DNA of 64,000 nucleotides from an uncultured Chloroflexia bacterium. GTDB taxonomy: Bacteria > Chloroflexota > Anaerolineae > Anaerolineales > UBA4823. Location: contig CAVPDG010000022.1 of assembly GCA_963702535.1 (NCBI GenBank), positions 31,691 through 95,690 of the forward strand. Direction: 5' to 3'. This document shows, piece by piece, positions 3,130-47,054 of this stretch (position 1 is its first letter; each line of letters opens with the position of its first letter). Made by a program: the position numbers and the translations under genes. The notes below the pieces were generated by a model. The model made no database searches, had not been told where the DNA came from, and saw only the letters and a list, made by a program, of their open reading frames with translations.

Positions 3130-4146
3130 GCCTCTGCCCTCGCCTTGTCCAGATCGGCTCCCCAGCTGACGCCTTCTCGCATCCCGTAATACAGCCCCAG
3201 CATGGTGATCGGGAACCAGAGGGCGGCGTGGAGCACCAGCGTGTACACCGCTGCAAGGTTGTATTCCACTTTGAAAGCGGTCAGCACGGCGATCCCGGAG
3301 GCGTCGAAGGTACCCAGGTAGCCCGGCGCCGAGGGGATGGTGGTCACCAGGTTGGAGATGCCATTCATCAGCATCAATGTGAAGAAGCTGACCTCGAAGG
3401 GGAAAGCGTGCATCAGGATCCAGTATTTGAACGTCTCAATCAGCCAGATCACCACCGAGGTCAGGAAGACCATCAGGGCTTCACGCGGCGAGCGCAAGGC
3501 GGCCAGACCTTCCAGGAATTTCTCAAGGATGCCGATCAGCTTCTCGCGGTATTTCTTCGGCGCCAGGTATTGCGCCAGCAAGCGCACAATCGTCATGGCA
3601 CGCTCCGGGAACATGGCTGCCGCCAGGAAAACGCCCAGCGCGCCCAGGAAAGCCAGTGTGCCCAACGATCGCCAGGGTGCGGATGTCGCCCACAAAGCCG
3701 GAGGTGCCCGTCAATTTAGCCAGTTCGTTCAGGTTGACGAAAATGAACCCCAGCATCACCACCCCGTCATACACCCGCTCCACGATGATCGTCGCCAGTG
3801 AGGCTGAGATCGCCACCCCCTCATGGCGCTTGAGCACGATCGCCCGCAGCACCTCGCCAGCCCGAGCCGGGAAGATATTGTTGGCTGCATAACCGATGGT
3901 CACGATCGGGAAGAGAGAAGTGGTCGGGATGGCTTTGATCGGGCGCAGCAGGTAATGCCAGCGCCAGGTGCGCACCCATACCCCCACAAAATACACCGCG
4001 ATCGCCGGGATCAGCCACCAGTAGTTCAGCCCTTGCAGCGCTTGCATCACGTCTGCCAGGACCAGTCCCTTCAAAGCCCACCATAAGAAGATCGCGCTGA
4101 TGACCAGCCCAATCCAAAACTGCCAGCGTTTTTTCACGGCTCTCAT
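3126..4146 (-). CDS. Lysylphosphatidylglycerol-synthase TM / flippase-like (UPF0104) membrane protein; frameshift near 3660
   Basis: ORFs 3523..4146 (RTWRWHYLL, NNIFPARAGEVLR, IVERVYD) and 3126..3695 (PSAPGYLGTFD). Confidence 0.8.
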
Positions 4147-4245
4147 TCTACCATGCAGAGGTGCATTCCATGCTTATCGCAAGCGCAAGGCGGCGCTTCG
4201 ATTATTCTCGGAACCCACTCAGCCTGCTCCGTGACGGATTTGCGG

Positions 4246-4273
4246 GGAACTCACCCAATTCGCAAAGCGTCTT
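4246..4273 (+). promoter_or_regulatory. Possible ECF-sigma promoter for the LysM gene
   Basis: GGAAC-N17-CGTCTT. Confidence 0.35.
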
Positions 4274-4394
4274 AAAATCGAGTAGAATAACGCAAATCCT
4301 TGAGTCACACGTACTCCGCGGTTGAAGCGGGAAGACCCCCGCAACGGGCTACTCTTCACCGGTATAAGACATCTGGCTCAAGCGTGAAACGGAA

Positions 4395-5132
4395 ATGGAT
4401 ATGACCGACAAAGATAAAGAATCGGCCCAAGACGTAATTGAAAGATACCGCAAGCACCAGAAGCAGGCGCAAAAAGCCCCCATCATGCTCGGGGTGGCTG
4501 CCGGCTTGCTGGTCGTTGGGGCTGCCGCTCTCATCTTCTGGCTGGTCGGACCGGGACTGCCAGAGTTATCTTTCCTGGCGACAGAAACCCCCACGCCTAC
4601 GGTGACCTCCACCCCAACCGCTACGGCGACAGCCACCCTCAACCCCACCGAGACGCCAACCAGCACCCCTACCCCCACCATCACCCTCACCCCTACCGCC
4701 AGCGGACCCTTTGTGTACGAGGTGCTGGAAAACGACAATCTCTTCAGCATTGCGGAGAAGTTCAACGTCGATCTGCTGGTCTTGATCGCCATCAACAACC
4801 TGGATGCGACCAATCCGATCATCCGCGTTGGCGATAAGCTCACCATCCCGGGTCCGGATACCCAACTCCCCACCTCTTCACCCATCCCCCTGAGCATGCG
4901 CCGCGGCACCCTGGTCGAATACACCGTCCAGACCGGCGACACGCTGGCAATCATCGCCGACAAGTTCAATAGCACGGTCGACGACATCGTCGCGGAGAAT
5001 GAGCTGACCGACCCCAACGCCATCTTCGTCGGGCAGAAACTGAACATCCCGGTCAACCTGGTCACACCGGTCCCCAGCAGCACGCCGGGTCCATCGCCAA
5101 CCCCCAGCGCTACCCTGACCGCCACCCCTTGA
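4395..5132 (+). CDS. Membrane-anchored protein with two LysM domains
   Basis: N-terminal TM helix, Thr/Pro linker, YEVLENDNLFSIAEKFNV and YTVQTGDTLAIIADKFNS LysM repeats. Confidence 0.9.
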   Translation: MDMTDKDKESAQDVIERYRKHQKQAQKAPIMLGVAAGLLVVGAAALIFWLVGPGLPELSFLATETPTPTVTSTPTATATATLNPTETPTSTPTPTITLTPTASGPFVYEVLENDNLFSIAEKFNVDLLVLIAINNLDATNPIIRVGDKLTIPGPDTQLPTSSPIPLSMRRGTLVEYTVQTGDTLAIIADKFNSTVDDIVAENELTDPNAIFVGQKLNIPVNLVTPVPSSTPGPSPTPSATLTATP

Positions 5133-5280: not shown

Positions 5281-6220
5281 ATGAAACATCCTTTCCTACT
5301 GACCGGCTTCTTAATCTTGCTCGCATTACTCCCTCTCTCCGCCTGCTCAATCCCGGCGCCTGGAACCAGCGCGCCGTCCGGAAAGCTCAAGGTGGTAGCT
5401 ACCACTACCCTCATCGGTGATATCGTGAAGAATATTGGCGGCGAACAGATCGATCTATCCGTGCTCCTGCCCATCGGCGCCGATCCCCATAACTACGAGC
5501 CTTCTCCCAAGGAACTCACCCTGGTTGCCAATGCGGACGTGCTCTTCACCAACGGCGCCGGTCTCGAGGGTTTCATGACCCGGTTGCTGGAGAACGCCGG
5601 CAGCCAGGCGAGTATCATCGCTCTCTCCGATGGGCTCACCTTGATCGACGCCGCAGAAGAAGACGACCATGCCGGCGATCCCGATCACGGCGGCAGTGAT
5701 CCACATGTCTGGATGGATCCAACCAATGTAGAGCACTGGGTTGACCGCATCGAGCAGGCTTTGAGTGAGGCAGATCCCGAACAAGCCGCAACTTACCAGG
5801 CAAACGCCCAGGCTTACCGCCAGGCGTTGAGCGATCTGGATGCCTGGATCAGCCAGCAGGTAGCCCAGGTGCCGCAGGCTAACCGCAAGATCGTCTCGGA
5901 TCACGTGGTTTTTGGCTACTTCGCCAGGCGCTATGGGTTCGAGCAGGTCGGTGCGGTGATCCCCTCCATCAGCACCCTCGCCTCGCCCTCTGCTCAGGAG
6001 CTGGCAGCGCTTGGAGGAGATCATTAATAACCTGGGCGTCAAAGCGATCTTTGTCGATTCGACGGTCAATCCCGGTCTTTCCCAGCGCATTGCCAGCGAC
6101 ACCCAGATCCAGGTGGTGCCGGTCTACTCGGGCTCGCTCAGCCCCGCCGCTGGTCCTGCCGCCACTTACCTGGATTTCATGCGCGCCAATGTCACCGCCA
6201 TCGTCCAGGCGCTGAAATGA
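5281..6220 (+). CDS. znuA: Zn/Mn ABC transporter substrate-binding lipoprotein; frameshift near 6015
   Basis: Lipobox LSAC, ADPHNYEP, DPHVWMDP, His/Asp loop; C-terminus in ORF 6011..6220. Confidence 0.85.
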
Positions 6221-6236
6221 CCGGAGGAGGACCCCT

Positions 6237-7091
6237 ATGGCTTTTCTGAAGCAGTTTTATAAAAATGCCTTGCCCTTAACTCACGTCCACCACCAGCCGG
6301 GAGCGCCGCTATTAGAGGTGGCTGACCTTGCCGTGCGCTACAACGGAGTGACCGCTCTGGAAAGCATCGCCTTCTCGCTGCATGCCGGGCAACGGCTGGC
6401 AGTGGTCGGTCCGAATGGGGCTGGCAAGAGCACGCTGTTCAAAGTGATCGCGGGCGTGCTCGCGCCCACCCGCGGCGAGGTGCGCATCTCGGGCTACCAG
6501 CCTGGCGGTCATATCTGCATCGCCTACCTGACCCAGCGCAGCGCGGTCGATTGGAGCTTCCCGGTCAGTGTGGCAGATGTGGTCATGATGGGTCGCATCG
6601 GCAAGCTCGGGTTGTTCCGCTGGCCCAAGAAAGAAGACTGGGCGTACGTCCGCCATGCCATCGAGTCCGTCGGTCTGGCTGATCTCGCCGGGCGGCAGAT
6701 CAGCGAGCTTTCCGGGGGACAGCAGCAGCGCATGTTCATCGCCCGCGCCCTGGCGCAGGAAGCGGAGCTGATGCTGATGGATGAGCCTTTCACCGGGCTG
6801 GACTTCAAGTCGCAGCAGGATATCCTGCAGATTATGGATCTGCTGCGCCAGCAGGGCGTGACGATCTTAGCCTCTACCCATGACCTGAACCTGGCTGGCG
6901 ATCATTTCGATCGCGTGTTGCTGCTGAACCGCCGCCTGGTCGGCTTTGGCTCGCCTCAAGAGGTATTCACCACCGAGCGGCTGGTCGCCGCCTACGGCGG
7001 TCATCTCCGCCTGGTCGAATCAGACAGGGACACCTTCGCCATCAGCGACACCTGCTGTGATGAGGAGGGGGCGCATGAACACACTGTTTAG
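6237..7091 (+). CDS. znuC: Zn/Mn ABC transporter ATP-binding protein
   Basis: GPNGAGKS, LSGGQQQR, LMDEPF. Confidence 0.9.
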   Translation: MAFLKQFYKNALPLTHVHHQPGAPLLEVADLAVRYNGVTALESIAFSLHAGQRLAVVGPNGAGKSTLFKVIAGVLAPTRGEVRISGYQPGGHICIAYLTQRSAVDWSFPVSVADVVMMGRIGKLGLFRWPKKEDWAYVRHAIESVGLADLAGRQISELSGGQQQRMFIARALAQEAELMLMDEPFTGLDFKSQQDILQIMDLLRQQGVTILASTHDLNLAGDHFDRVLLLNRRLVGFGSPQEVFTTERLVAAYGGHLRLVESDRDTFAISDTCCDEEGAHEHTV

Positions 7092-7938
7092 TCTGCTCCT
7101 CGAGCCGTTGAATTACGCTTTCATGGTGCGCGGCATCCTGGCCGCCTTGATGGTGGGCGCCGTCTGCGCCCTGGTGGGCACCTACGTCGTCCTGCGCGGC
7201 ATGGCGTTCTTTGGCGACGCCCTGGCGCACGCCATCCTGCCCGGCATTGCCGCCGGTTACCTCATCGGCGGCGGGGCGCGCGAGCCCCTCTTCTGGGGGG
7301 CGTTGCTGGCGGCTGTGATCAGCTCCATCGGCATCGGCGCGGTCAGCAAGATGACCAACCTGCGCCAGGACACCGCCATCGGCATTGTCTTTGCCGGCAT
7401 GTTCGCCCTGGGCATTGCCATGATCTCCACCGTGCGTAACTACACCCTTGACCTAGCGCACTTCCTCTTTGGAGATGTCCTGGGGGTATCGAACAGCGAC
7501 CTGCTGCTCATCGCCGCCCTGGGTAGCCTGATCCTCCTGGCGGTGGTGCTCTTCTACAAGGAATTCCTGGTGCTTTCCTTCGACCCGCTCCTGGCCGCCA
7601 CCCTCAGGCTGCCGGACCGCATCCTGGAATACCTGCTGTTGATCCTCATCGCCCTGGTCATCGTCGTCTCGCTGCAAACGGTGGGGGTCGCCTTGATGGT
7701 CGCAATGCTGGTCACCCCGGCGGCAACGGCATACCTGCTCACCCGCCGCCTGCCTTTCATGATGGCGCTGGCAGCCGCCATTGCCTGCTTTTCCGGCGTG
7801 GTCGGTCTGTACCTTTCGTATTACGTGCGCGTGTCCTCCGGCGCGGCGATCGTGCTGACCTGCACTGCTTTCTTTATCCTTGCCTGGATCGTGCGCCTGG
7901 TGCGCACAGCCCGCCTGGAGAGGCTGCCGCCGCTATGA
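7075..7938 (+). CDS. znuB: Zn/Mn ABC transporter permease
   Basis: ATG at 7075 (MNTLF); GDALAHAILPG motif; multiple TM helices. Confidence 0.9.
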   Translation: MNTLFSLLLEPLNYAFMVRGILAALMVGAVCALVGTYVVLRGMAFFGDALAHAILPGIAAGYLIGGGAREPLFWGALLAAVISSIGIGAVSKMTNLRQDTAIGIVFAGMFALGIAMISTVRNYTLDLAHFLFGDVLGVSNSDLLLIAALGSLILLAVVLFYKEFLVLSFDPLLAATLRLPDRILEYLLLILIALVIVVSLQTVGVALMVAMLVTPAATAYLLTRRLPFMMALAAAIACFSGVVGLYLSYYVRVSSGAAIVLTCTAFFILAWIVRLVRTARLERLPPL

Positions 7939-8402
7939 CCGGATATATTCCCCCCTCTTCACCCGCACTCGTCGACGAATGGCTGCGGCGACTTGAAGCC
8001 AACGGCTACCGCCTCACCGCGCCGCGCCGCGCCGTTGTTGAGATCATCGCCCTCAGCCGGCATGTGCTCACCCCCATGGATATCTTCGAGCAAGCGCGAC
8101 CCCACCATGCCAGGCTGGGTCTGGTGACGGTTTACCGCACACTGGAAAAGCTCGAAGAGCTGGAGCTGGTGCAGCGCGTCCACCGCCCATCCGGCTGCCA
8201 GGCGTTCATCGCCGCTTTTTCAGGGCACCAGCACCTGCTCATTTGCCAGGGCTGCGGCCGCGTAGAGTTCTTCAATGGGGAAGACGACCATATCGAATCC
8301 CTGATGTCGCATGTTGGGGAAGCGTGTGGCTACCAGGTGCAATCGCACTGGCTGCAGCTTTTCGGCGTCTGCGAGCATTGCCAGGGAAACGGCACTACTT
8401 GA
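7935..8402 (+). CDS. zur: Fur-family regulator, probably Zur
   Basis: RLTAPRRAV, TVYRTL, HQHLLICQGC, C-terminal CEHC; lies in the znu operon. Confidence 0.8.
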   Translation: MTGYIPPSSPALVDEWLRRLEANGYRLTAPRRAVVEIIALSRHVLTPMDIFEQARPHHARLGLVTVYRTLEKLEELELVQRVHRPSGCQAFIAAFSGHQHLLICQGCGRVEFFNGEDDHIESLMSHVGEACGYQVQSHWLQLFGVCEHCQGNGTT

Positions 8403-14015: not shown

Positions 14016-15389
14016 TCAATGGGCGATCGTCAGCAGCTCGAGCGGCATCCTGCCGGCGCTCTTGAGCAAAGTCGCCTGCATCGACCACGGTCCGCTCCAC
14101 GTCACCTGGACGGGTCTCACCTGCCCCAGCAGGTCTTCCTCCGCTTCGACGAAGACCAGTTTATTGGTGGGCGTGCGCCCCTTCCACCTGCCGCGCACTT
14201 TCTCCTCGAAGAGCACGTCCACCACCTGCCCCAGGTAGCGGGCATTGATCTCAGCCACGATGCGCTCCTGCTGTTCCTCCAGCAGCCGGAAACGCCGCCA
14301 TTTTTCCGCTTCGGGCACATCGTCGGGCATGCGGCGCTCGGCGACCGTGCCGGGTCTGGGCGAATAGCGCGCCAGGTGCGCCACATCCAGCCGCAGCTCC
14401 TCCAGCAGGTCATAGGTACGCTGGAAGCGCTCCTCGCTCTCGCCGGGGAAGCCCACGATGATATCAGTGGCGATCGATATCCCTGGAAAATCAGCCCCTC
14501 CCAGCCGCTCGCGGATCTTAGCCACCAGCCGGCGATAATCACCGGCAGTGTAGCCGCGTTTCATCTCTTCCAGCACCTGGTCATCGCCCGCCTGCACCGG
14601 CACCTCGATATGTGGCATCACTTTCGGCAGTTCCGCTACCGCATCCAACAGCTCATCTGTCATCCAGTTGGGATGCGAGGTCAGGAAGCGGATGCGCTCC
14701 AAGCCGTCGATCGGGTGGATGGCGCGCAGCAGTCCCGCCAGGCTGGGACCATCGGACACATCCTTGCCATAGCGGTCCACGATCTGCCCCAGCAGCGTGA
14801 CCTCCTTGACTCCTTGCGCCACGAGCGAGCGCACCTCACCGGCGATCTCCCCCACCGGGCGGCTGCGCTCCACGCCGCGCCGGTATGGGATGATGCAGAA
14901 TGTGCAGGCATGCGAGCAGCCCAGCACAACCGGCACGTGCGCCGAGACCAACGCCCCGCGCTCGTGCAGCGGCAGCATAAGTCCATCATCCATCGCGCCA
15001 AAGCGCCTCTCCGTCTCTGCCTGCTCCAACTGGCGGCTTTCATCCTGCGTCAGGAACGCTACCAACGGACCGGGATCAGATGGCGGCGAAAAAACGTCTA
15101 CAAAAGGAAAGCGTTTTTTGAGATGGTCATAACCCTTAACGCCAACCAGGCAGCCCATCAGGTTGATCACCAGTCCAGGGTGCTTGTCCTTCAGCGGGCG
15201 CAGATTGTGCAGGTGACCGATCGCCTTGTCTTCGGCGCTCTGGCGCACGACGCAGGTGTTCAACACCAGCACGTCAGCTTCCTCCACGCCTTTTGCCGCC
15301 TGGTAGCCCAGCCCTTCCAGGGCAGATGCCACGCGCATCAAATCGGCTACGTTCATCTGGCAGCCTTCTGTCCAAATGTGATATTTCAT
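14016..15389 (-). CDS. miaB: tRNA-2-methylthio-N6-dimethylallyladenosine synthase
   Basis: TEGCQMN, NTCVVR, radical SAM CSHACTFC, IIVGFPGE, YSPRPGT, C-terminal TRAM domain. Confidence 0.92.
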   Translation of the reverse strand: MKYHIWTEGCQMNVADLMRVASALEGLGYQAAKGVEEADVLVLNTCVVRQSAEDKAIGHLHNLRPLKDKHPGLVINLMGCLVGVKGYDHLKKRFPFVDVFSPPSDPGPLVAFLTQDESRQLEQAETERRFGAMDDGLMLPLHERGALVSAHVPVVLGCSHACTFCIIPYRRGVERSRPVGEIAGEVRSLVAQGVKEVTLLGQIVDRYGKDVSDGPSLAGLLRAIHPIDGLERIRFLTSHPNWMTDELLDAVAELPKVMPHIEVPVQAGDDQVLEEMKRGYTAGDYRRLVAKIRERLGGADFPGISIATDIIVGFPGESEERFQRTYDLLEELRLDVAHLARYSPRPGTVAERRMPDDVPEAEKWRRFRLLEEQQERIVAEINARYLGQVVDVLFEEKVRGRWKGRTPTNKLVFVEAEEDLLGQVRPVQVTWSGPWSMQATLLKSAGRMPLELLTIAH

Positions 15390-15537
15390 GTCCAATATTA
15401 TAACATTTAGGCGTTACGCAATTGTGACGAGATGATCCCCGCGCTCCATTTCTGGGGCTTTCTTCACCGAGAACCTTAAGTCCCCGGGCTATTAATCAAA
15501 CATTAATCTCGGCGCTCAATATTCCTCAATATTCTTG

Positions 15538-15565
15538 TTGACATTTTGACAAACTGTGCTAATAT
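15538..15565 (+). promoter_or_regulatory. Sigma70-like promoter of the lysW operon
   Basis: TTGACA(15538)-N16-TAATAT(15560) with an extended -10 TG. Confidence 0.55.
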
Positions 15566-15575
15566 TTTTGCCAAT

Positions 15576-15659
15576 ATGCCCGCCTTGCCTGTCTACTTGC
15601 GCTTGCGTCCCTTCCCCCCGGGGTCTCTCAAGAGAGGGTTAAGGCGCGTCTTGGCATAG
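15576..15659 (+). CDS. Putative attenuator leader peptide MPALPVYLRLRPFPPGSLKRGLRRVLA (27 aa)
   Basis: Short ORF just downstream of the promoter and upstream of a terminator; 5 Arg, 6 Leu, 1 Lys; not in the ORF track. Confidence 0.5.
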   Translation: MPALPVYLRLRPFPPGSLKRGLRRVLA

Positions 15660-15688
15660 ATAATCGTTAAATTGTTCGTTCTGGCGCT

Positions 15689-15722
15689 AGAGGACCTCTC
15701 TTCATCGATGAGGTCCTTTTTT
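15689..15722 (+). terminator. Intrinsic terminator (attenuator) in the lysW leader
   Basis: AGGACCTC...GAGGTCCT stem followed by a T-run, about 30 nt upstream of lysW. Confidence 0.75.
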
Positions 15723-15753
15723 GTTATCTACAAATCTTTAGGAGGAAGAAGAT

Positions 15754-15921
15754 ATGACTGCAAACTGTCCTGAATGTGACGCCCAAATGAATTTGGTTGA
15801 TGTCGTCAAAGGCGAGATCGTTGTGTGTCCAGATTGTGGCGTGGACCTGGAGGTAATGGAGATCCAGCCTGAGATAAACCTCGCCCTCGCCCCTATGGAA
15901 GCTGAAGATTGGGGCGAATAA
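15754..15921 (+). CDS. lysW: Amino-group carrier protein LysW (55 aa)
   Basis: Hand translation [55 protein letters not shown]: two CxxC motifs and the C-terminal EDWGE; AGGAGG RBS; missing from the ORF track. Confidence 0.97.
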
Positions 15922-15985: not shown

Positions 15986-16885
15986 TTGAAAATCGGCGTG
16001 CTTTACTCACGTATTCGTGTTGAAGAAAAATGGCTATTTGAGGCGCTTGAGAAACGCGGCGTGGACTACGATCGCCTGGACGACCGCGAAGTCGTATTTG
16101 ACCTGAGGGATCCGGGCCCCTGGCAAGCATACAGCGTAGTATTGGAACGTAGCCTCTCTTATACCCGCGGTCTTTATGCGGTGCAGGTGCTGAACCGCTG
16201 GGGAATACCTACTGTAAACAGCGCAGCCGTTTCTGCTACCTGTGGGGATAAGTTATTGACTTCCTCGGCGTTGCAGGCTGCGGGCGTACCCCAGCCTCGC
16301 GTCATTCTGGCATTCACGCCTGAATCCGCGCTCCAGGCAATGGAGATGCTGGGCTATCCGGTGGTGTTGAAGCCGGTTGTCGGTTCCTGGGGCAGGTTAG
16401 TCTCCAAGGTAAATGACCGTGAGGCTGCAAGTGCCCTGCTTGAGCATCGGGACGTTCTGGGAAATTACCAGCAGCAGGTTTACTATATCCAGGAGCACAT
16501 CCGCAAGCCGGGGCGCGACATCCGCGCCTTTGTGATCGACGAGGAGACGATCGCGGCCATCTACCGCACATCAGACAATTTCATCACCAACACTGCCCGG
16601 GGTGGGACCGCGATGAATTGTCCGGTGACGCCCGACCTTAACGCCATATGCCTGGCTGCCGCCCAGGCTGTCGGAGGCGGCGCGTTGGCGATCGATCTCC
16701 TGGAGGACCCCGATCGAGGTTTCTTGGTAAACGAGGTCAATCATACGATGGAATTCCATGCTTCAGCGCCTGCCACAGGCGTCGATATTCCGGGTAGGGT
16801 TATCGACTACGCCATGAGCATCGCTGGGAGGTTGACCATCCGCTCTGCAATATATGCCTGCCCCATTGTACGCACAGGCAGATGA
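15986..16885 (+). CDS. lysX: LysW ligase (RimK/ATP-grasp family, LysX/ArgX)
   Basis: [35 protein letters not shown]. Confidence 0.92.
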
Positions 16886-16906: not shown

Positions 16907-18088
16907 GTGATTGATTTAATGAACGTAATCGAGCAGGAAGATCGCTATACGTCTGGGCTTTACACCAAGCGACCGGTCGTGATTGAGCGCGGCAGCGGTG
17001 CTCATTTGTGGGATATCGATGGAAAAGAATACATCGATTGCGTTGGAGGGCAGGGAACCGCTAACGTAGGTCATGCCAATCCCTTCGTGGCAGAAGCCAT
17101 TTCACGGCAGGCCGGTGTGCTGATCTCGTGCCCCGAAATGTTTTATAATAGCCGCCGCTCTGCGCTCGCCGAAAAACTGGTCAGTATTTCTCCCGCCGGA
17201 TTGGATCGGGTTTATCTATGCAACTCCGGCACGGAAGCCATCGAAGCGGCGATCAAATTTGCCCGCCTCAAAACCGGGCGCACCGAGCTGGTGGCTGCCA
17301 TGCGCGGCTTCCACGGGCGCACCCTGGGCGCCCTTTCTGCCACCTGGGAGAAAAAGTACCGCGAGCCTTTTGAGCCGCTGGTGCCAGGCGTTCGGCACAT
17401 CCCCTACAACGACGTGCCCGCCCTGGAAACAGCCATCACCGAGAGCACAGCCGGGGTTATCCTGGAAGTGGTGCAGGGAGAGGGCGGCGTCCGCCCAGCG
17501 ACAACGGGATTCCTGCTGGAGGCGCAAAGGTTGTGCCGCCAGAGAGGCGCATTGCTCATCATCGATGAGGTCCAGACCGGCTTTGGGCGCACAGGCAAGA
17601 TGTTCGCCTGCCAGCATAGCGGTCTGCAGCCAGATATCCTCTGTGTGGCGAAATCGATCGGCGGCGGCATCCCCATGGGCGCTGTTCTTTTTGGGGAGCG
17701 TGTTGGAAAGCTGCCTTCCCAGGTGCATGGCTCGACCTTCGGCGGGAACCCCTTAGCCTGTGCCGCAGCGCTCGCGGCGATCAACTATATCCTGGATAAC
17801 CACCTCGCAGAACAATCTGCTGAGCTGGGGAACTGGTTCATCAACCGGCTGGCGCAGATACGCTCGCCACTGATCCGCGAAGTCCGCGGTCTGGGTTTGA
17901 TGGTCGGGATCGAGCTCAAGCAGAAAGTTACGCCTTACTTGATGGAATTAATGGATAGGGGTGTGCTGGCATTGCCAGCGGGGCTCACGGTGATGCGCTT
18001 TCTGCCCCCACTGGTAATTACTCGCCAGGATCTTGTTGTCGTGTCTGATTATGTCGAAGAGGTGCTCAGCCGTCCGTTGCCAGAGTAG
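16907..18088 (+). CDS. lysJ: [LysW]-semialdehyde aminotransferase (class III PLP, ArgD-like)
   Basis: NSGTEA, GFHGRT, DEVQTG, AKSIGGG, HGSTFGGNP; lies in the lysW cluster. Confidence 0.88.
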   Translation: MIDLMNVIEQEDRYTSGLYTKRPVVIERGSGAHLWDIDGKEYIDCVGGQGTANVGHANPFVAEAISRQAGVLISCPEMFYNSRRSALAEKLVSISPAGLDRVYLCNSGTEAIEAAIKFARLKTGRTELVAAMRGFHGRTLGALSATWEKKYREPFEPLVPGVRHIPYNDVPALETAITESTAGVILEVVQGEGGVRPATTGFLLEAQRLCRQRGALLIIDEVQTGFGRTGKMFACQHSGLQPDILCVAKSIGGGIPMGAVLFGERVGKLPSQVHGSTFGGNPLACAAALAAINYILDNHLAEQSAELGNWFINRLAQIRSPLIREVRGLGLMVGIELKQKVTPYLMELMDRGVLALPAGLTVMRFLPPLVITRQDLVVVSDYVEEVLSRPLPE

Positions 18089-18115: not shown

Positions 18116-19174
18116 TCAAGCATCTCCGGGGCATAGTGTGGATAGAACGCTCGTCAGTACCTGCACCGAACGCCTGTATTCCTCCAGCACCAGGTGCTCG
18201 CCGGGGGTATGGTCGAGCGCCGAATCCCCCGGACCATAGGCAACCGCCGGGCAGCTCCAGGCTGGAGCGACAATGTTCAAATCGGCGGTGCCGGTCTTGA
18301 CCACAAAACCCGGTGAGCCACCTACCTGGCGGATCCCTGCCAGGAATGCTCGCACCAGGGGTGTGTTCTTCTCAGCCTGGTATGCCGGAATAGCAAAACT
18401 GGCAGGCGTTCGCTCAGCCTCTGGGGCGATCTCAGCCAGGCGCTGGAACCAATCCTCGGGGGTCATTCCCGGCGGCAGCCGGACCCCCACCCGCAACCTG
18501 GCCCATTCAGTGAACCCGTCGCTGCCCGAGTCAAATCCCCTCAGCGAAGGGCTTACCTGATCGAAGACCCGCTCACGCCCTGTATTGAACGCCCTGCTCC
18601 AACCCTGGATCGCCTTCCAGGCTTCGACTGCCGCCTCACAGGCGTTCAGCGCTTGTGCAGCCGGGTGAGCAGTTGGCTGGCGCAAAGTATATCAACCTAT
18701 CGCACTTCCCTTGTAGCCCAGGGTGACCCGTTCCCAACGCGACGGCTCGCCGATGATGGCGTATTCTGGGCGATACTGGTCGACGATAAAACGCGCCCCT
18801 GCTGAATCGCTCTCCTCATCCACCGCCCCGATCAGGACAATTTGCCAGCCGGGGATGGCGCCCAAGCCCGCAGCAGTATCCACGAAAGCCGCCAGTGGAC
18901 CTTTGGCGTCCACCGAGCCGCGGCCGTAAAGTTTCCCGCCTTCCACCCGCGCTGCAATCTCGCCCGGCACAGTATCGATGTGACCCAGCAAGACGAACTG
19001 GCGCCTCCCATCTCCTAAAATCCCAACGGCATTGCCGACCGGATCAACAAACGCCCTGGAGTAGCCTAATTCCTGCATGCGCCCCACCAGCCAGGCAACC
19101 GCCTCCCCTTCTTGTCCGCTAGGGCTGTAATGCTCGACCAATCCTAACAGAGTGGCATACTCATCCATGCCCAT
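18116..19174 (-). CDS. lysK: [LysW]-lysine/ornithine hydrolase (M20, ArgE-like); frameshift near 18690
   Basis: LGHIDTVPG, GRGSVDAKGP and GEPS..LGYKG in ORF 18692..19174; KTGTAD..YGPGDSALDHTP in ORF 18116..18685. Confidence 0.88.
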
Positions 19175-19977
19175 CAGGCGATCACCGTGCCTTTTCCTGC
19201 CAGAGCCCTGGAAATGGGGTCCTCCACCCGTCCGTCGGCGATCACTACTTGTTTGACCCCGCCCTGCAATGCCTCCTCAGCTCCCAGGACTTTCTTCTTC
19301 ATCCGGCCCTGGGCGTACTCCAGCGCTTGGGGCAGGTGCTGGCGAGAAAGGCTGTCGATCAGGCTGCTCTCGTCGGGAAAATTCCGCATCAATCCGGGCG
19401 CCGCGGTCAGCAAAATCAGGCTCTCGGCCTGCAGCGCCGCGGCGATCATCGCTGCGGCACGATCGGCGTCTACATTGAGGGCTTCTCCAGCCGGGCTGAT
19501 GGCTAGCGGAGCTATCACCGGCAGGTAGCCCTGCTCAAGGAGTGTTCTCAACAGCATCTCATTCACCTGCTCCACCTTGCCGGTGAAATCATCCCGGATC
19601 ACTTTGCGCTTTCCATCCTCAATCACCTGAACGGTTGCCTTCCGCGTGGCGGTCATCAGCCGGCCATCCAGCCCGCTCAGTCCGATGGCGTTCACGCCCA
19701 GGGATTGAATTTGCTCGACCAGGAGCGAGTTCACCTTGCCATTTACCGCCATCAAAAAGATTTCGAGCGTGCCGCGATCCGTGTAGCGTGAGGTATAGCC
19801 CGAAGGCGAGGTCAAGAAGCGCGGCGGAGAGCCAAGTTTTTCGCCCAGGTCATTTGCCTCCGCTGAGCCGCCGTGCACCATTACCAGCTGCTTCCCTTGA
19901 GCCAACAAAGCTGCCGTATCCCGGCATACTGCCCCAAAATCCACCCCCTCGGTACCACCGATCTTCACAACGATCAT
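19174..19977 (-). CDS. lysZ: [LysW]-aminoadipate/glutamate kinase (ArgB-like)
   Basis: VVKIGG, VHGGS, TSPSGYTSRYTD, LNVDADRAA, GRMKKK. Confidence 0.92.
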   Translation of the reverse strand: MIVVKIGGTEGVDFGAVCRDTAALLAQGKQLVMVHGGSAEANDLGEKLGSPPRFLTSPSGYTSRYTDRGTLEIFLMAVNGKVNSLLVEQIQSLGVNAIGLSGLDGRLMTATRKATVQVIEDGKRKVIRDDFTGKVEQVNEMLLRTLLEQGYLPVIAPLAISPAGEALNVDADRAAAMIAAALQAESLILLTAAPGLMRNFPDESSLIDSLSRQHLPQALEYAQGRMKKKVLGAEEALQGGVKQVVIADGRVEDPISRALAGKGTVIA

Positions 19978-20005
19978 TGCCTGGTCTCCTCAAATACCCG
20001 GTGAG

Positions 20006-21040
20006 TTATATGGGATGCAGCCCCGAAAAATCCATGCCGAGTGTTTCCTCCCAGCCGAACATCAGGTTCATGCTCTGCACTGCCGAGCCCGCCGCGCCTT
20101 TCATCAAGTTATCGATGGCGCACATCGCAACGACATGCCCGCTGGCGGCATCCAGCTCGAATCCCAGGTCGGCGTAATTGGAGCCTGCCAGGATTTTCGG
20201 CTCAGGCGCCCGGTAAACGCCGCGCTGCTCTTTCACCACGCGGATGAAAGGGTTCTCGGCAGCCAGTTGGCGGTACGCTTTCCACAGATCCTTATTGCCA
20301 ATCCCTGGCTTCACCTGGGCATGAGCCGTCGCCAGCACGCCGCGCACCAGGTCCACCGAGGTGATCGTCAGGATTACATTCTCCAACTGGAGCTCCTGGA
20401 TGACTTCGCCAGTGTGCCGGTGCCCGGTTGGGGAGAAGGTGCGGATCACCCCGCTGCGTTCGGGGTGATGCGAGCCGGGATTGCCCTCTGCCCCGCCCTC
20501 CGAGGAACCCACCTTTATCTCGACGATCACCTGTTGCTGCCGGTCGATCAGGTCATACTTCACCAGCGGCAGCAGAGCCAGGATGCTCGCCGTGGCATTG
20601 CACCCCACCCCGCTGATGTAATTCGCCTGGTACATCTCGCTGCGGTGCAATTCCGGGAGTCCGTAAATAAAACGAGTAAGCCACTTGTGTGAAGCGTGCG
20701 CTTTCCCGTACCAGCGTTCGTAGTCTGCGGCGCTTCGCAGACGGAAATCGGCAGAAAGGTCAATGACGCGCGGGGCGAGTGCGACATACTGCTCGATCTT
20801 GCGCTGCGCCTCGCCGTGCGGCAGCGCCAACAACAGCAAATCACACGGCTGGACCATCTCCGGGCTACTGAACTGCAAAGCCGTTCGCTTGCGCAGATTG
20901 GGATGGACCTGATATACATACTCGCCAAGGTGGCTGCGCGAGCTCACTTGCGCCACGTCAACTTCAGGATGGGCGTCCAGCAGGCGGAGTAACTCGCCTC
21001 CTGTATAGCCGGATCCGCCAAGGATGCTTGCCTCGATCAT
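20006..21040 (-). CDS. lysY: [LysW]-phosphate reductase (ArgC-like)
   Basis: GGSGYTGGE, DLSADFR, GCNATA, SHHPER, DNLMKGAAG. Confidence 0.92.
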   Translation of the reverse strand: MIEASILGGSGYTGGELLRLLDAHPEVDVAQVSSRSHLGEYVYQVHPNLRKRTALQFSSPEMVQPCDLLLLALPHGEAQRKIEQYVALAPRVIDLSADFRLRSAADYERWYGKAHASHKWLTRFIYGLPELHRSEMYQANYISGVGCNATASILALLPLVKYDLIDRQQQVIVEIKVGSSEGGAEGNPGSHHPERSGVIRTFSPTGHRHTGEVIQELQLENVILTITSVDLVRGVLATAHAQVKPGIGNKDLWKAYRQLAAENPFIRVVKEQRGVYRAPEPKILAGSNYADLGFELDAASGHVVAMCAIDNLMKGAAGSAVQSMNLMFGWEETLGMDFSGLHPI

Positions 21041-21148
21041 ACGAGCCTCCTGCAAAGATGATTACGCCTGCAACCCTGCACCATTCGAGCGACAAGATAC
21101 ACCATTCTAATCCAAATTCCCCTTTTACATGATGATACAATTGCCGCC

Positions 21149-22410: not shown

Positions 22411-23812
22411 TTACCCGCTTGAACTGGCCGCGCTTGCCGGCAGGGATTCTCCCGCTTCTGGCTTGATGCGCAGCAATGCCAGCGCCCACAGGGCTGCCAT
22501 CAGCAGTCCGGCTAACAAGAAAGGTGCCCGCGCCCCAAACGCCTGGAAAATCAATCCGCCAATCAGAGGCGCGATGGCATTCGCCCCGCTAAGAAAGGCG
22601 GCTGAGATACCCAGCATCCCGCCTACCTCAGCCTTGATCACTTTCTTGGTGATCATGCTGTTAATGCTGGGCTGCAGCACGCCGCCCCCCACAGCTATCG
22701 GCACCATCGCCGCAAGGATCCAGAGCAACCCCAGCCAGCCGTTGTTATTGTCGGGCGGCAACTCCACTGCCAGGTTCTGCGTGGTGGGGTTCTCGTGGGC
22801 GCGGAAGCTTCCGCTGGAGCTCAGCTCAGCCTGCAGCTTCGCTTGCGAATAGCCGGGCAGCGGCTGGCGCGGTGTGAGCGCCGTCAGAATCAGCCCAACT
22901 GCCAGCAGCCCCAATCCCATGCTGATCAGGCGCCGCTCGCCCAGCTTTCAACTCCAGGGACCGATGAATCCCCCCTGCACTGCCACCACGATCACGCCCA
23001 CAAACACAAAGATGATCGAATTCCCTGAGGCATTCAACCCCATGCGCGCCAGAGTGAACAAGGATAAAAGCTGTTCGAAATCCGCCAAAGGCAATCTGTT
23101 GAAAAAATATCAGCATCAGCAAGAAGCCGATCGTTGGGCGTTTCAGGGCTTCCACCATCGCCCCGAACGAAAAAGCAGATTTTTGCTGGCTGGTTCCCCG
23201 GCGTTCTTCCGGCAGGGTCTCCTCGAACCAGAACCAGGTCAGCAGGATCGAAATGAGCGAGAACACCGCCGCCACAAAAGCCGGGACATGGTAATTGTTC
23301 TGGCTGACCATGAGCGAGAGGAATGCAATAATTGGACCGATGACAAATCCCACCCCAAACGCTGCGCCCAGCAAGCCCAATCCCTGCGTGCGATTCTTCT
23401 CATTCGTGCTATCGGCAATCGCCGCCTGGGCGGTGGAGATATTGGCGCCGGAAATGCCGTCGATCACGCGCGAGAGGAACAGCATCCACAGCGAGCTGGC
23501 GAACCCCAGCACCAGGAAACCCACCAGCGTGCCGACCTGGCTGATCATGAGCACAGGCTTGCGCCCGTAGCGGTCGGACAGGCGCCCCAAAATCGGCGCG
23601 CCGATGAACTGCATCATCGGGTACACCGCGCCCAACAAGCCGATCGTGAAGGCGTTCGCCCCAAAAGACACCGCGTACAGCGGCATCAATGGGATGATGA
23701 TCGTCATGCCGAGCAGATCGATCAGCACGATCACGAAAACGGGCAGTAGCTTCTTAAAATCAAGTTTGTCTTCTGGAGCAATCTCCGGCTTTGGTGTATT
23801 CTGCTTTGCCAT
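22411..23812 (-). CDS. MFS transporter (TetA/DHA1-like); frameshift near 23080
   Basis: GRLSDRYGRKP, RVIDGISG, GFVIGP; C-terminal half in a shifted frame (ORF 22411..22920). Confidence 0.85.
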
Positions 23813-23843
23813 ACCTTTTCCTTCTGTTGTTTTGATCTTGCGC

Positions 23844-24752
23844 CTATTGGGCGTGCTCGCCCCGGCGCACCCCGCCCAGCACCTGCCGGGCGCGTTCCAC
23901 CCCGGCTGCCAGCGAGCGCTGCACTGCCGCCTGGGAGAAATCCAGCGTATCACCCAGCGATGCCTGCGGCTCGATGATCTTACAGTCGTAATACTTCAGC
24001 GCTCGCCCGCTCGTCGGGTGGAACAGCGTATGTCCCAGCGCCTCCGCTTGCTTCACCAGGGCATTGATGCGCACGAACTCGCTCATATCGCTACGGAACA
24101 GCTCGTTTAATAATAGGTCCAGCGTGCGCTCGCCGATCTTGAGGATGTTCCCCGGCGGCTCAGGCAGCGCCTCCGTCGTCTCCGGGCTGCAGTTGATGAT
24201 CACCACCTCATCCGGGTCGGCATCCAAGATATCCCCGATCGGGCTGATGTTGCGCACGCCGCCGTCCACCATGCTGCGATATTGCGCCGAGATATCCACC
24301 GGCGTCCAAATGATCGGCATCACCGTCGAAGCCAGCACCGCCTGCCTCAGGTTGGGATCATCACCCCTGAACTCAACGTACTCCCCGCTCACCAGCGAGA
24401 CTGCCCCCACGCGCAGATCGGCGGCAATTTTATCCGGCTCCCATTCATTCAGCAGCAGCCGGCGCAGCGGCTCGTTGCCGTAGAAGGATTTGGCGCCGAA
24501 AAGCAGCTTGATGGTCGAGAGCAGGTTGAACCCTCCCGTATAGACCTGATCGCTGGAGATGGTGCTCCACACCTCGTACAAGCGCTGGTATTTCTCCATC
24601 GCCAGCATCGCCGCGTTGAGCGCCCCCACCGACACCCCGGCGATGATATCCCAATGGTAGCCTTTCACCTCACGGGCGTACTTCTCCGCGCCGCACTGGA
24701 AGGCGCCCTTCGCCCCGCCGCCGCTGAGTACAAGTGCTGTCTTTTTCACCAT
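23844..24752 (-). CDS. Patatin-like phospholipase
   Basis: LSGGGAKG, GVSVG nucleophile elbow, DGG. Confidence 0.9.
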   Translation of the reverse strand: MVKKTALVLSGGGAKGAFQCGAEKYAREVKGYHWDIIAGVSVGALNAAMLAMEKYQRLYEVWSTISSDQVYTGGFNLLSTIKLLFGAKSFYGNEPLRRLLLNEWEPDKIAADLRVGAVSLVSGEYVEFRGDDPNLRQAVLASTVMPIIWTPVDISAQYRSMVDGGVRNISPIGDILDADPDEVVIINCSPETTEALPEPPGNILKIGERTLDLLLNELFRSDMSEFVRINALVKQAEALGHTLFHPTSGRALKYYDCKIIEPQASLGDTLDFSQAAVQRSLAAGVERARQVLGGVRRGEHAQ

Positions 24753-44657: not shown

Positions 44658-44879
44658 CTATCCCCCGCTCAGTGGGTAGAGGAAGACGACGATATCCCCA
44701 TCCTTCAGGATGTGGCTTTTTTTCACCTGTTCCCCATTGACGAAAACCGGCAGCAGCCGGGCGGGATTGAGACCGCTGCCTTTGAGCACATCTTTCACCC
44801 GGCTGCCCGCGCGCATTTCCAGGCAGTCTTCCTGATCCAGCCCGCGGACGGGGAAGGGGGCGATGACCTTAACCTTCAT
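44658..44879 (-). CDS. MoaD/ThiS-family sulfur carrier
   Basis: 73 aa, VFVNG..LKDGD, C-terminal GG. Confidence 0.88.
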   Translation of the reverse strand: MKVKVIAPFPVRGLDQEDCLEMRAGSRVKDVLKGSGLNPARLLPVFVNGEQVKKSHILKDGDIVVFLYPLSGG

Positions 44880-46846
44880 GCTGGCTGGCAGCAGTTGTGA
44901 GCTGCGGCAGGCTCAGGGTTTGCAGCGTCTCCGGGAGCGGGATGCCGGTGTCGCCATCCCAGCCGATTGCCTGCCAGTAGAAGCGGCGCAGCTCATCGAT
45001 AGGGACCTGCCTGCCCTTGTTGGGACCGCTGCGGAAAGGCGGCTCGCCGGCGCTGCGCCCGGGCAGGCGCACATCGGCGGGCTGCAGCCCTTCGCGGATG
45101 TTGAAACACTGGCGCAGGGTTTGCACGCGTCGCCCGATCTCCATGTACTCGTCGGGCGTCTTCTGCCAGCCGGCGGCGGCGTTGAGGTACTCGAACATGG
45201 GCATGCGGTCCACGCCCATCAAGAGACCGAAGGTACACAGCCCGGCGCCATCGATCACCATTTTTGCCAGGCTGCAGCCGGCGGCGTATTTGCCATGCGC
45301 CTCGTCAGCCTCGTAACGCTCGCTGACGGGGTAGGAGCGCGGCGCCTCCGGCGCCCAGCTTACTTTAGTCCATAACCTCAGCGTCTCATACGTGCCATAC
45401 GAGCCGACCGTATGCCTGCCGGGTGTTGGCTCGACGATATAGTGAACGCCGTAGCCTGGATCGCTTTTGGGATCGTGCATGGGCAGCTCCTGCCCGCCGG
45501 CGTGCATGGCATAGCGCTCCGCGCCGCGACCGATCTTTTCCGCCGCCACTTTGACGCCATCTGCCAGCACGTCTCCAATTCCTTCGCGGGCGATCATCAG
45601 CTTGACAAGCTGGATAATGGCTGGGGTGTTGCCCCAGGAGAGCTGCAGCCCGCCGGTGTCTTGCTCGGTAATTACGCCGTTTTCAAAGCATTCGATGGCG
45701 AAAGCCACGATGGCGCCCGCCGAGATACTATCCATGCCGGCGCGGTTGAGGAGCTCATTGACGGTGAATATGCCATCCAGGTCCTTGTTGAGCAGCAGAG
45801 CGCCAAAAGTTGTCGATGTCTCGTATTCCGGGCGGTGGGTCTCAGAATCGCCCTCCGCTGTGGTTCCGGTGGCGCCGCAGCCTAACGGGCAGGAGTAGCA
45901 ATGGTACTGTTTTGGCGTGCGGCTGAGCAGGCGGTCGGGGTTGACCGTTGCCATCGGATAGTCGCGCCCCACACCGCCCCAGTTCTTTGACCGGCGTGTC
46001 GCCGGTGACCAGGCCGATCTGGTTGATGGTGGTGGTGCCCCACTTGCGGAAGGCGGCGACGCCCAGCATACCGTCCGTGCGCATGGCAGTCTTGCGGGCT
46101 GTCATGAGGCGGTAGAGGATAGGGAAGACCCAGGAGGGGTAGCGAAACTTGCCTTTGGGGACATAGGCGTTGGCAGCCTTGCTCAACCGCTTGAGCTCGG
46201 CGCTATCGGCGGTGCGGATAGGCTTGGAGCCAGCCAGGACGAGCGCTTTCAAGCGCTTGGAGCCCATCACCGCTCCCAGCCCGGAGCGACCCGCCAGCCG
46301 TCCCCCCTCATTGCAGATCCCGGAGACCAGGGAGAGCTTCTCGCCCGCCATGCCGATGCTGGCGACGCGCGGCTGGCGCTTGCTGCCCGCCTCGACTTTC
46401 AAGCGCTTCTCCGTCTCGCTGGCGTCGACTCCCCACAGGTGAGCGGCGCTGCGGATCTCCACAGTCTCTCCGTCAGCAAACAGGTAAACAGGCTCGCTGG
46501 CGATGCCTTTGAAGAAGATGGCATCATAGCCGCAGGCTTTGATCGCCGGACCAAAGTTTCCGCCGCAATTGGCGTCTCCCCAGCCGCCAGTGAGGGGAGA
46601 TTTGCCCGTCACCATCCAGCGACCGCTGAACAACGTCCCGGCGCCGGTCAGGATGCCGGTGACGAAGCCCAATAAATTGTCCGGACCGAGCGGGTCGGCG
46701 CCGGGCGGCATGTGGTGGTAGGTCACATAGGCTGCCAGCCCAACGCCGGACAGGTATTGCTCGTAGATTTCATCGGGTATAACCTGCTCTTCCCAGGAGC
46801 GGGAAGCCAGGTCAACCAGCAGGATCTTGCCAGTATAGCCTCTCAT
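44869..46846 (-). CDS. Aldehyde:ferredoxin oxidoreductase family (W/Mo); frameshift near 45980
   Basis: GYTGKIL.VDL, KSPLTGG, GRSGLGAVMGSKRLKA, CYSCPLGC, PEYET, GMDSIS, ELPMHDP. Confidence 0.9.
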
Positions 46847-47054
46847 TGTATGTTCCTTCACCTTTACTGTATTTTCCCCCAAAGGGGCAAGTTGCGCAAG
46901 TCAAAAGCAAATATCCCCGGCAATATTAATATTCTTCGGCGTGCGCCTCCCTGAACTGCGTAACTCCGTTTTCTTAGGACTGATGCGTTTTTCTTCATGC
47001 TATACTGGTAGCTTGTGTGTGCAGGACAAAATATCTGATTGAGGTGTCGCAACG

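Follow-up and report, generated by a model that had tools for sequence, protein, structure and literature searches.

A candidate leader-peptide attenuator with arginine codons upstream of the lysW operon in an uncultured bacterium of the Anaerolineales

The region upstream of lysW was analyzed in a stretch of 64,000 nucleotides (hereafter the window) from contig CAVPDG010000022.1, assembly GCA_963702535.1, of an uncultured member of the Anaerolineales (Chloroflexota). The interpretation which is given a somewhat better than even chance is that positions 15538-15753 function as a ribosome-mediated leader-peptide transcription attenuator of lysW-lysX-lysJ which is read out via Arg codons, and that this is the local form of a family of leaders with Lys and Arg codons on an operon probably common to lysine and arginine synthesis. 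The assignment to the leader-peptide attenuators is well supported by comparison with related loci, while arginine is the best available reading for the window and is proposed with moderate confidence. A promoter, a 27-codon open reading frame (ORF), a terminator and an 8-nt complement had been described here in an earlier reading made from the letters of the DNA (the sequence-only reading); all four are present, and its coordinates were all correct.

The promoter is a strong one of the sigma-70 type (Table 1). In a consensus scan it scored 10 of 12 matches, with the TG at 15557-58 present. Two promoter-like sites were found between 14800 and 16400, compared to 0.8 +/- 0.9 in shuffled sequences, and both represent the promoter at 15538 in two registers. 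The leader ATG at 15576 follows the -10 box by 10 nt, without a Shine-Dalgarno sequence. The encoded peptide contains Leu codons (TTG) at positions 4, 8 and 10 and a second basic cluster, LKRGLRR (K19-R20...R23-R24). Its single Lys codon is K19 (AAG 15630-32), and the KK pair of a Thermus-type leader is not found. The intrinsic terminator, located 31 nt before the lysW ATG, was not listed by the consensus terminator scan since its loop is longer than the scan permits. Since miaB, the neighbour upstream of the leader, is divergent, the terminator cannot be that of an upstream gene; it is placed between a promoter and the opening gene of that promoter's own operon.

The sequence AAGAGAGG (15630-37) is exactly complementary to CCTCTCTT (15695-702), the duplex having an energy of -12.9 kcal/mol. 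Since positions 15695-15700 are common to this antiterminator and to the terminator stem, the two structures are mutually exclusive. An exact complement of at least 8 nt between 15573-15680 and 15685-15706 occurred in 107 of 5000 dinucleotide shuffles (P = 0.021). The whole leader of the window folds at z = -2.05, with 7 of 200 shuffles folding equally well. The sequence thus holds the early short ORF, the terminator before the first gene, the exclusive antiterminator and a region 1 predicted to sequester it, which together characterize a leader-peptide attenuator.

The consequences of ribosome stalling were modelled by equilibrium folding of the transcript up to 15706, that is before the right arm of the terminator, a footprint of 30 nt being masked around one A-site codon at a time. 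In the ribosome-free minimum free energy (MFE) fold, region 1 pairs with region 2, the antiterminator strand is sequestered and the terminator forms. The probability of an upstream partner for the left arm of the terminator was 0.02 without a ribosome, and 0.71 and 0.58 with R9 and R11, respectively, in the A site. It was 0.05 at P12, 0.02 at the G of PPG and 0.00 at K19, while stalls at R20, R23, R24 or the stop codon gave 0.17-0.28 by means of a different upstream pairing. For the specific helix 15630-37 / 15695-702, six footprint settings placed the productive A-site positions at approximately codons 5-11, with zero pairing from about codon 13 on. Arg9 and Arg11 are thus located at the 3' edge of the productive stretch, and the result for stalls at these codons was kept in five of the six settings. 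Two codons are few, and Leu codons are found in the same stretch.

In the proposed mechanism, transcription would start approximately 3-5 nt before the ATG and the leader would be translated without a Shine-Dalgarno sequence. With translation running through, or with no ribosome present, regions 1 and 2 would pair and the terminator with its T6 run would stop transcription before lysW. With charged tRNA-Arg scarce, the ribosome would be stalled with Arg9 or Arg11 in the A site and would cover region 1. By pairing with CCUCUCUU (15695-702), the freed AAGAGAGG would then occupy the left arm of the terminator, and RNA polymerase would read into lysW.

The sequence-only reading had left a choice between an Arg-, a Leu- and an elongation factor P (EF-P)-responsive attenuator. 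PPG is a strong EF-P-dependent motif, and the window leader contains P-F-P-P-G. A ribosome stalled at PPG would mask part of the antiterminator strand, with the result that the left arm remains at 0.02 and the specific helix at zero, and PP is found in only 2 of the 37 leaders which are described below; this part of the proposal is not supported. For Leu the support is confined to L8 and L10 lying within the productive stretch. Leu is the second commonest residue of the leader peptides (10.3%), with no tie to the pathway. An attenuator reading either the TTG codons or EF-P-dependent stalling is accordingly regarded as very improbable, and arginine is the part of the proposal which fits the stall model and is singled out by the Arg columns of related leaders.

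Related leaders were collected by comparing the window LysX with one genome per species and keeping the best 80 of 565 confirmed loci, in which LysX was 63-77% identical. With the exception of L041, which carries the title of an Alcaligenaceae metagenome-assembled genome, these loci are titled Anaerolineae, Thermoflexales or other Chloroflexota. A protein 97% identical to the window LysX is present in the protein set (P0002), and the best match among the genome loci is 77% identical. In 62 of the 80 loci lysW lies directly upstream of lysX, and in 40 of these 62 a small ORF and a terminator were found at the same place and with the same geometry (36 complete loci and four others, namely L065, L067 and, by eye, L025 and the partial L038). 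In three of the 62 the upstream sequence was too short for a leader to be judged. Of the 26 lysW loci other than the 36 complete ones, 19 have argH or argG before lysW and no such leader. Among the cultured strains of the set, Leptolinea tardivitalis (L078) carries a family member, and Anaerolinea thermolimosa (L071) has no leader. The claim of the sequence-only reading that a bacterial lysW operon is preceded by a leader-peptide attenuator is thereby backed by a positional family, and this recurrence is the strongest argument against a chance arrangement in the window.

The 36 complete loci and the window make up the 37 aligned leaders. The ORFs of the family are 22-32 codons long (window, 27) and start 159-217 nt before the lysW ATG (window, 178). 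The distance from the ATG to the end of the terminator is 140-174 nt (window, 151), a range which leaves out one locus with a mis-picked terminator that was later re-set by hand. A promoter-like site was detected close to the leader start codon in 29 of the 37 leaders, the spacing between its -10 end and the ATG being 4-20 nt (median 9; window, 10 nt); judged from this spacing, near-leaderless translation looks like a family trait.

Common to the leader peptides is a basic patch at approximately codons 8-15, with the consensus K-R-A-R-R-x-P-K-P; examples are GLKRARRSPKP, AKRSPRRPKP, PLKRRPT, IRLRRKP, PLKKRS and LPKRKSP. At least two Arg and at least one Lys are found in all 37 peptides, and Arg and Lys account for 13.3% and 7.7%, respectively, of 1027 residues. 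Two adjacent basic residues ([KR][KR]) are present in 36 of the 37, KR in 32 and RR in 29. In the best-kept Arg column (R in 31/37) the codons are CGT (23), CGA (6), CGC (1) and CGG (1). The retention of Arg with synonymous codon change argues that the patch is under selection as a translated sequence. The nucleotide sequences of the leader subfamilies are not alignable with each other.

From the ATG through codon 16 the window leader aligns without gaps to 23 relatives (MAFFT), and the peptide alignment agrees. Over codons 8-16 the family has K R A R R S P K P and the window L R L R P F P P G. R9 (CGC) falls on column 11 (R in 27/37) and R11 (CGT) on column 13 (R in 20/37), while both family Lys positions are occupied by other residues. 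It appears from this alignment that the window has kept Arg, not Lys, at the patch positions of the family. The subfamily of L024, L053 and L060, with (E/I)-(L/R)-R-L-R-R-K, comes near the L-R-L-R of the window. L-R-L-R had been put forward in the sequence-only reading as a site of stalling, and this is supported by the position of R9 and R11 on family Arg columns and in the only stretch predicted to free the antiterminator.

The alternative that the same attenuator senses lysine together with arginine, or mainly lysine, with K19-R20...R23-R24 contributing via queued ribosomes or other pairings, is unlikely. The patch of the family holds Lys as well (K in 18/37 at column 10 and in 20/37 at column 18), and the window has a second basic cluster, LKRGLRR; the alternative pairing of 0.17-0.28 was obtained with stalls at R20, R23, R24 or the stop codon. 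Against this, no Lys codon of the window falls in the stretch which frees the antiterminator; the only one forms the first three bases of the antiterminator strand, where a stall is predicted to abolish the antiterminator, and under all six footprint settings the helix has zero probability at every A-site position from about codon 13. The description of the leader as not lysine-sensing consequently holds for the window, from whose patch Lys is absent, and fails for the family, which uses Lys as well as Arg codons.

The basic patch may also be considered as a nascent-peptide arrest or pause motif which senses a metabolite in the exit tunnel, or which keeps the ribosome in step with RNA polymerase; this is rather improbable. 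Conservation does extend beyond K/R to the following Pro (P in 31/37 at column 16), the window keeps R-P and has PPG, and a precedent exists in the speFL leader peptide, which is reported to sense ornithine within the ribosome (PMC12360218). The K/R composition of the patch is variable (KRARR, KRR, KKR, KRK, RLRRK), which is easier to reconcile with codon counting than with a fixed arrest motif, and the window peptide is not matched by the family profile. An RNA helix strand, CCGAAGCC, coincides with the P-K-P codons of the close relatives, and the conservation of these codons may be due to the RNA. In addition, the operon is biosynthetic, and a metabolite-induced arrest would have to terminate transcription, which needs a different geometry.

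A third alternative holds that the ORF is untranslated and that the terminator is constitutive, or is run by an RNA-binding protein or a small-molecule-binding RNA. The ATG at 15576 has no Shine-Dalgarno sequence, leaderless initiation in this host is an assumption, and the ORF of the window is not statistically similar to the family. This alternative is nevertheless quite improbable in view of the synonymous variation at the conserved Arg codons, the fixed short distance of the ATG from the -10 box in 29 of the 37 leaders, and the persistence of ORFs of 22-32 codons despite nucleotide divergence beyond alignment. An RNA element was not recognized by Rfam either: with a permissive threshold, positions 15300-15900 gave no match, including L-box and T-box, the best scores being 15.9 and 12.3 bits (gathering scores 45 and 46.9) on the opposite strand. 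At the gathering score, no matches were obtained in 15 related loci.

RNA structure was also compared among the relatives. In a stall scan of the 37 leaders (no terminator was picked in L026, L051, L053 and L060, and a wrong, weak hairpin in L057 and L072), the productive stretch ended at or just past the R-R-x-P codons in the clean cases L074, L063, L059, L070 and L080. A duplex between upstream sequence and the left arm of the terminator which beats 95% of shuffles was found in 19 of 37 leaders, a count that keeps all 37 rows, including L057 and L072 with their mis-picked terminators; the upstream partner is located past the patch, at approximately codons 16-27. For the 23 closest relatives, RNAalifold revealed a hairpin CCGAAGC/GCCTTCGG directly after the patch and the terminator GAAGGCCTC/GAGGCCTTC, and the right arm of the first hairpin could pair with the left arm of the terminator (2:3 helix) in 96.1% of cells. 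In L031, GGGGTCTCGG with CTGAGACCCC appeared compensatory by eye and was not counted, as it is out of register in the alignment. An automatic search for partners of the left arm, in which the leader was folded without the right arm, was noisy, with terminators mis-picked in L022, L040, L042, L026 and L057, and was not used for counts.

A number of observations weigh against an arginine-codon attenuator of this family in the window. The antiterminator has only 8 bp, and its best duplex energy is not exceptional (P = 0.235, 200 shuffles). The masked folding is sensitive to the mask: the left-arm pairing drops from 0.58 to 0.05 between R11 and P12, and under the shortest footprint R11 gives approximately 0.0-0.1. 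Val6, Tyr7, Leu8 and Leu10 fall in the same productive stretch, and Arg was chosen over them through the family comparison alone. At equilibrium the full terminator always wins, so that the switch must be a kinetic one, as in classical attenuators. In many relatives the antiterminator is favored even without a ribosome (for example, 0.88 in L002 and 1.00 in L009), which makes the equilibrium scan a weak discriminator. No double compensatory changes were found in the 2:3 helix of the 23 close relatives, the three strands of which are nearly invariant.

Further points of this kind concern the place of the window in the family. At the best-conserved Arg column the window has Pro. A nucleotide profile of the 23 relatives (nhmmer) found nothing at 15576-15726, its sole match in the window being elsewhere (1.5 bits, E 5.5). 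A hidden Markov model of the peptides of 36 relatives scored 3.7 bits (E ~3) on the window leader, a value exceeded by at least 10 of the 525 small ATG-ORFs in the window. The RNA helices are unlike those of the nearest LysX relatives (CCGAAGCC / GGCCTTCGG / CCGAAGGCC). The comparison of lysW upstream regions across Anaerolineae which the sequence-only reading had suggested yielded a recurrent ORF, terminator and basic patch, and did not yield the window's own helices in its nearest relatives. Finally, as described below, one gene of the window contains an in-frame TGA and others are split, so that the leader, too, may contain base errors. A frameshift affecting the second half of the leader could arise at the C6G4 run (15614-23), which lies 3' of both Arg codons.

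Since sequence similarity is not statistically detectable, membership of the window leader in the family rests on its position, its geometry and the two Arg codons. The branch of the window LysX is long (0.47) in the LysX tree. The leader is treated here as either a strongly diverged member of the family or a functional replacement.

Table 1. Coordinates of the proposed attenuator, of the genes around it and of the lysW-less loci (window positions unless a locus is named)
Feature	Position	Strand	Description or basis
Sigma-70-type promoter	15538..15565	+	-35 TTGACA 15538-43, 16-nt spacer, extended -10 TGcTAATAT 15557-65 (TAATAT 15560-65)
Leader ORF, 27 codons, near-leaderless	ATG 15576 to TAG 15657-59	+	ORF translation; peptide MPALPVYLRLRPFPPGSLKRGLRRVLA*
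Proposed regulatory codons Arg9 (CGC 15600-02) and Arg11 (CGT 15606-08), Leu10 between	15600..15608	+	Family alignment and masked folding
Region 1 (anti-antiterminator strand)	15582..15601	+	Pairs with 15627-15645 in the ribosome-free MFE fold
Region 2	15627..15645	+	Holds antiterminator strand AAGAGAGG (15630-37) and the only Lys codon
Intrinsic terminator	15689..15722	+	Stem 15689-15700 / 15707-15719, then T6 15717-22; -16.4 kcal/mol (RNAfold)
lysW, first gene under the proposed control	Shine-Dalgarno AGGAGG 15740-45, coding sequence 15754-15921	+	TIGR01206, 60.3 bits (cut-off 53.2)
lysX-type ligase	15986-16885	+	Profile annotation
lysJ-type transaminase, rest of operon	16907-18088	+	Profile annotation
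Convergent lysY(argC)-lysZ-lysK, same pathway, outside attenuator control	18116..21055	-	Profile annotation
lysW-less LysX loci in hcs operons	L020 3-7211; L021 22-4855; also L019, L029, L030, L044, L046, L048, L056, L066, L068, L079		

The occurrence of Arg codons in front of a lysW operon was considered in the light of the LysX genes of the relatives. LysX genes without an adjacent lysW are found in operons of the order hcs-hacA-hacB-homoisocitrate dehydrogenase-lysX (followed by lysJ and lysK in L020). They form a clade of 12 with a Shimodaira-Hasegawa-like approximate likelihood-ratio test (SH-aLRT) value of 93, and this lineage is taken as the lysine-specific branch. The LysX of the window belongs to the lysW-adjacent clade and not to that of the hcs operons. 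In L061, L071 and L078 the lysW-adjacent operon is lysW-lysX-lysY-lysZ-lysJ, in L071 following argG-argH, and argH matches were also found upstream of five leader-bearing loci. Both LysX paralogs occur together in several genomes, and on three contigs the putatively attenuated lysW operon is closely followed by the hcs operon. In the one pair which was annotated, L061/L021, there are together one lysW, one lysY and one lysZ and two ligases.

For Thermococcus, the LysW enzyme system is reported to serve both syntheses in vitro, including the conversion of glutamate to ornithine (PMC11032458). Biochemical evidence for such a dual role of LysW is so far known only from archaeal systems. The simplest inference for the present operons is that the carrier and the common enzymes probably serve both lysine and arginine synthesis. 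If the carrier is shared by both pathways, a leader with Lys and Arg codons would place this shared part under multivalent control.

Upstream of hcs, L024 (approximately 4010-4430) and L025 (approximately 5460-5878) have two further small ORFs, with a terminator-like hairpin and a T-run behind each ORF. These ORFs are rich in paired Lys codons (for example ...AGKKECKKPE* and ...LDKKNGP...) and have no Arg patch. The region upstream of hcs was in view at these two closely related loci and cut off in 12 loci. On this thin evidence, the small ORFs are candidates for Lys-codon attenuators on the lysine-specific operon.

A wider scheme may be put forward tentatively, its likelihood being somewhat short of even. 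In Anaerolineae one LysW carrier system would serve lysine and arginine and would be controlled by two tiers of leaderless attenuators, with Lys-codon leaders on the lysine-only hcs operon and mixed Lys/Arg leaders on the shared lysW operon. The Arg-only form of the window would then be the first Arg-codon attenuator of an amino-acid biosynthetic operon, the shared operon having been handed to arginine control.

Similarity to solved structures was tried as a means of assigning the lysW-adjacent LysX as 'ArgX' and was rejected: both paralogs scored best on 3vpd and 1uc8 and lower on 3vpb/3vpc, so that the substrate could not be read from it. A third group of lysW-less LysX genes (L001 2279-4897; also L004, L006, L010 and L052) is sister to the subclade of the window. 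In L001 the lysX gene directly follows a gene for L-piperidine-6-carboxylate dehydrogenase, which hints at a link to aminoadipate from lysine breakdown.

Other elements before lysW were noted at some loci. In L013, L014, L049 and L055, where lysW follows argH without a leader, the spacer contains, about 150-180 nt before lysW, tandem short repeats such as GTAAAACG/GTGAAACG and inverted copies of these, which could be operator-like sites or repeat elements. In L054, a short contig, a repeat of approximately 32 nt (…CTCTCCCACAAGGAGAGGGGGAGGCTTGGCCC…) is present three times in tandem at positions 1-139, directly upstream of lysW.

Leader-peptide attenuation has been described chiefly in Proteobacteria and Actinobacteria and in a small number of other groups, the classical examples being amino-acid operons of the trp, his, thr and ilv type. 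The window region resembles these in its promoter-proximal ORF, in proposed regulatory codons at which a stalled ribosome would cover region 1, in its helices 1:2, 2:3 and 3:4 and in the terminator before the first biosynthetic gene; the mixed Lys/Arg codons of the family are reminiscent of the multivalent thr and ilv leaders. It differs from them in that its codons are Arg (Arg and Lys in the family), that there are only two with Leu between them, that the ORF is near-leaderless and that the host belongs to the Chloroflexota.

The leader of the lys cluster of Thermus thermophilus carries tandem Lys codons before the homocitrate synthase gene. The two elements have in common the LysW-dependent alpha-aminoadipate pathway family and a leader, translated in Thermus and probably so in the window, with a terminator. 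The window leader, unlike the Thermus leader, precedes lysW, has no tandem Lys codons and holds its single Lys codon in the antiterminator strand. The Thermus element would seem to be matched more closely by the KK ORFs which precede hcs in L024 and L025.

A literature search found no lysW leader, no leader-peptide attenuation of an amino-acid operon in Chloroflexota and no Arg-codon biosynthetic attenuator. To our knowledge, leader-peptide attenuation is known neither with Arg codons nor from Chloroflexota, and no Arg-codon attenuator of a biosynthetic operon is known. The case of a lysW leader or of an Arg-codon attenuator is not treated in PMC4833913, and the names lysW and lysX in PMC545781 refer to unrelated genes, so that this paper was set aside. 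For the speFL/orf34 leader of speF in Escherichia and Salmonella, mRNA conformations under low and high arginine are reported (PMC6386406); the system is reported to work through Rho and the binding of ornithine in the exit tunnel and to control a catabolic decarboxylase (PMC12360218). speFL and the window element share a short upstream ORF tied to arginine/ornithine metabolism and premature termination. They differ in that speFL is Rho-dependent and catabolic, while the window element has an intrinsic terminator and precedes a biosynthetic operon.

As indirect genetic evidence, a conserved leader with Lys and Arg codons before a carrier-protein operon suggests that LysW of Anaerolineae may serve arginine as well as lysine synthesis. 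In uncultured lineages the codons of such leaders could provide a simple read-out of the amino acid to which the LysW operon is tuned, and the family adds a set of apparently leaderless regulatory ORFs. The use and control of the LysW pathway in bacteria outside the model phyla is of some wider interest.

Among the neighbouring genes, lysK, which encodes the [LysW]-lysine/ornithine hydrolase (18116-19174, reverse strand), contains one in-frame TGA (stop 18692-18694, ...GSAIG*YTLRQ...). Its halves match the N- and C-terminal parts of one NCBIfam model, and the TGA could indicate a pseudogene, a sequencing error or read-through. Two genes on the reverse strand, for a major facilitator superfamily (MFS) transporter (22411-23953) and an aldehyde:ferredoxin oxidoreductase (44869-46882), are both broken into a pair of overlapping ORFs which encode the N- and C-terminal domains in different frames. 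This suggests frameshifts from assembly errors or gene decay. A zinc-uptake cluster was identified 7 kb upstream of the leader (5281-8402), consisting of genes for a ZnuA-like binding protein, an ATP-binding cassette (ABC) ATPase, an ABC-3 permease and a Fur-family regulator. It is an ordinary cluster and is unrelated to the leader.

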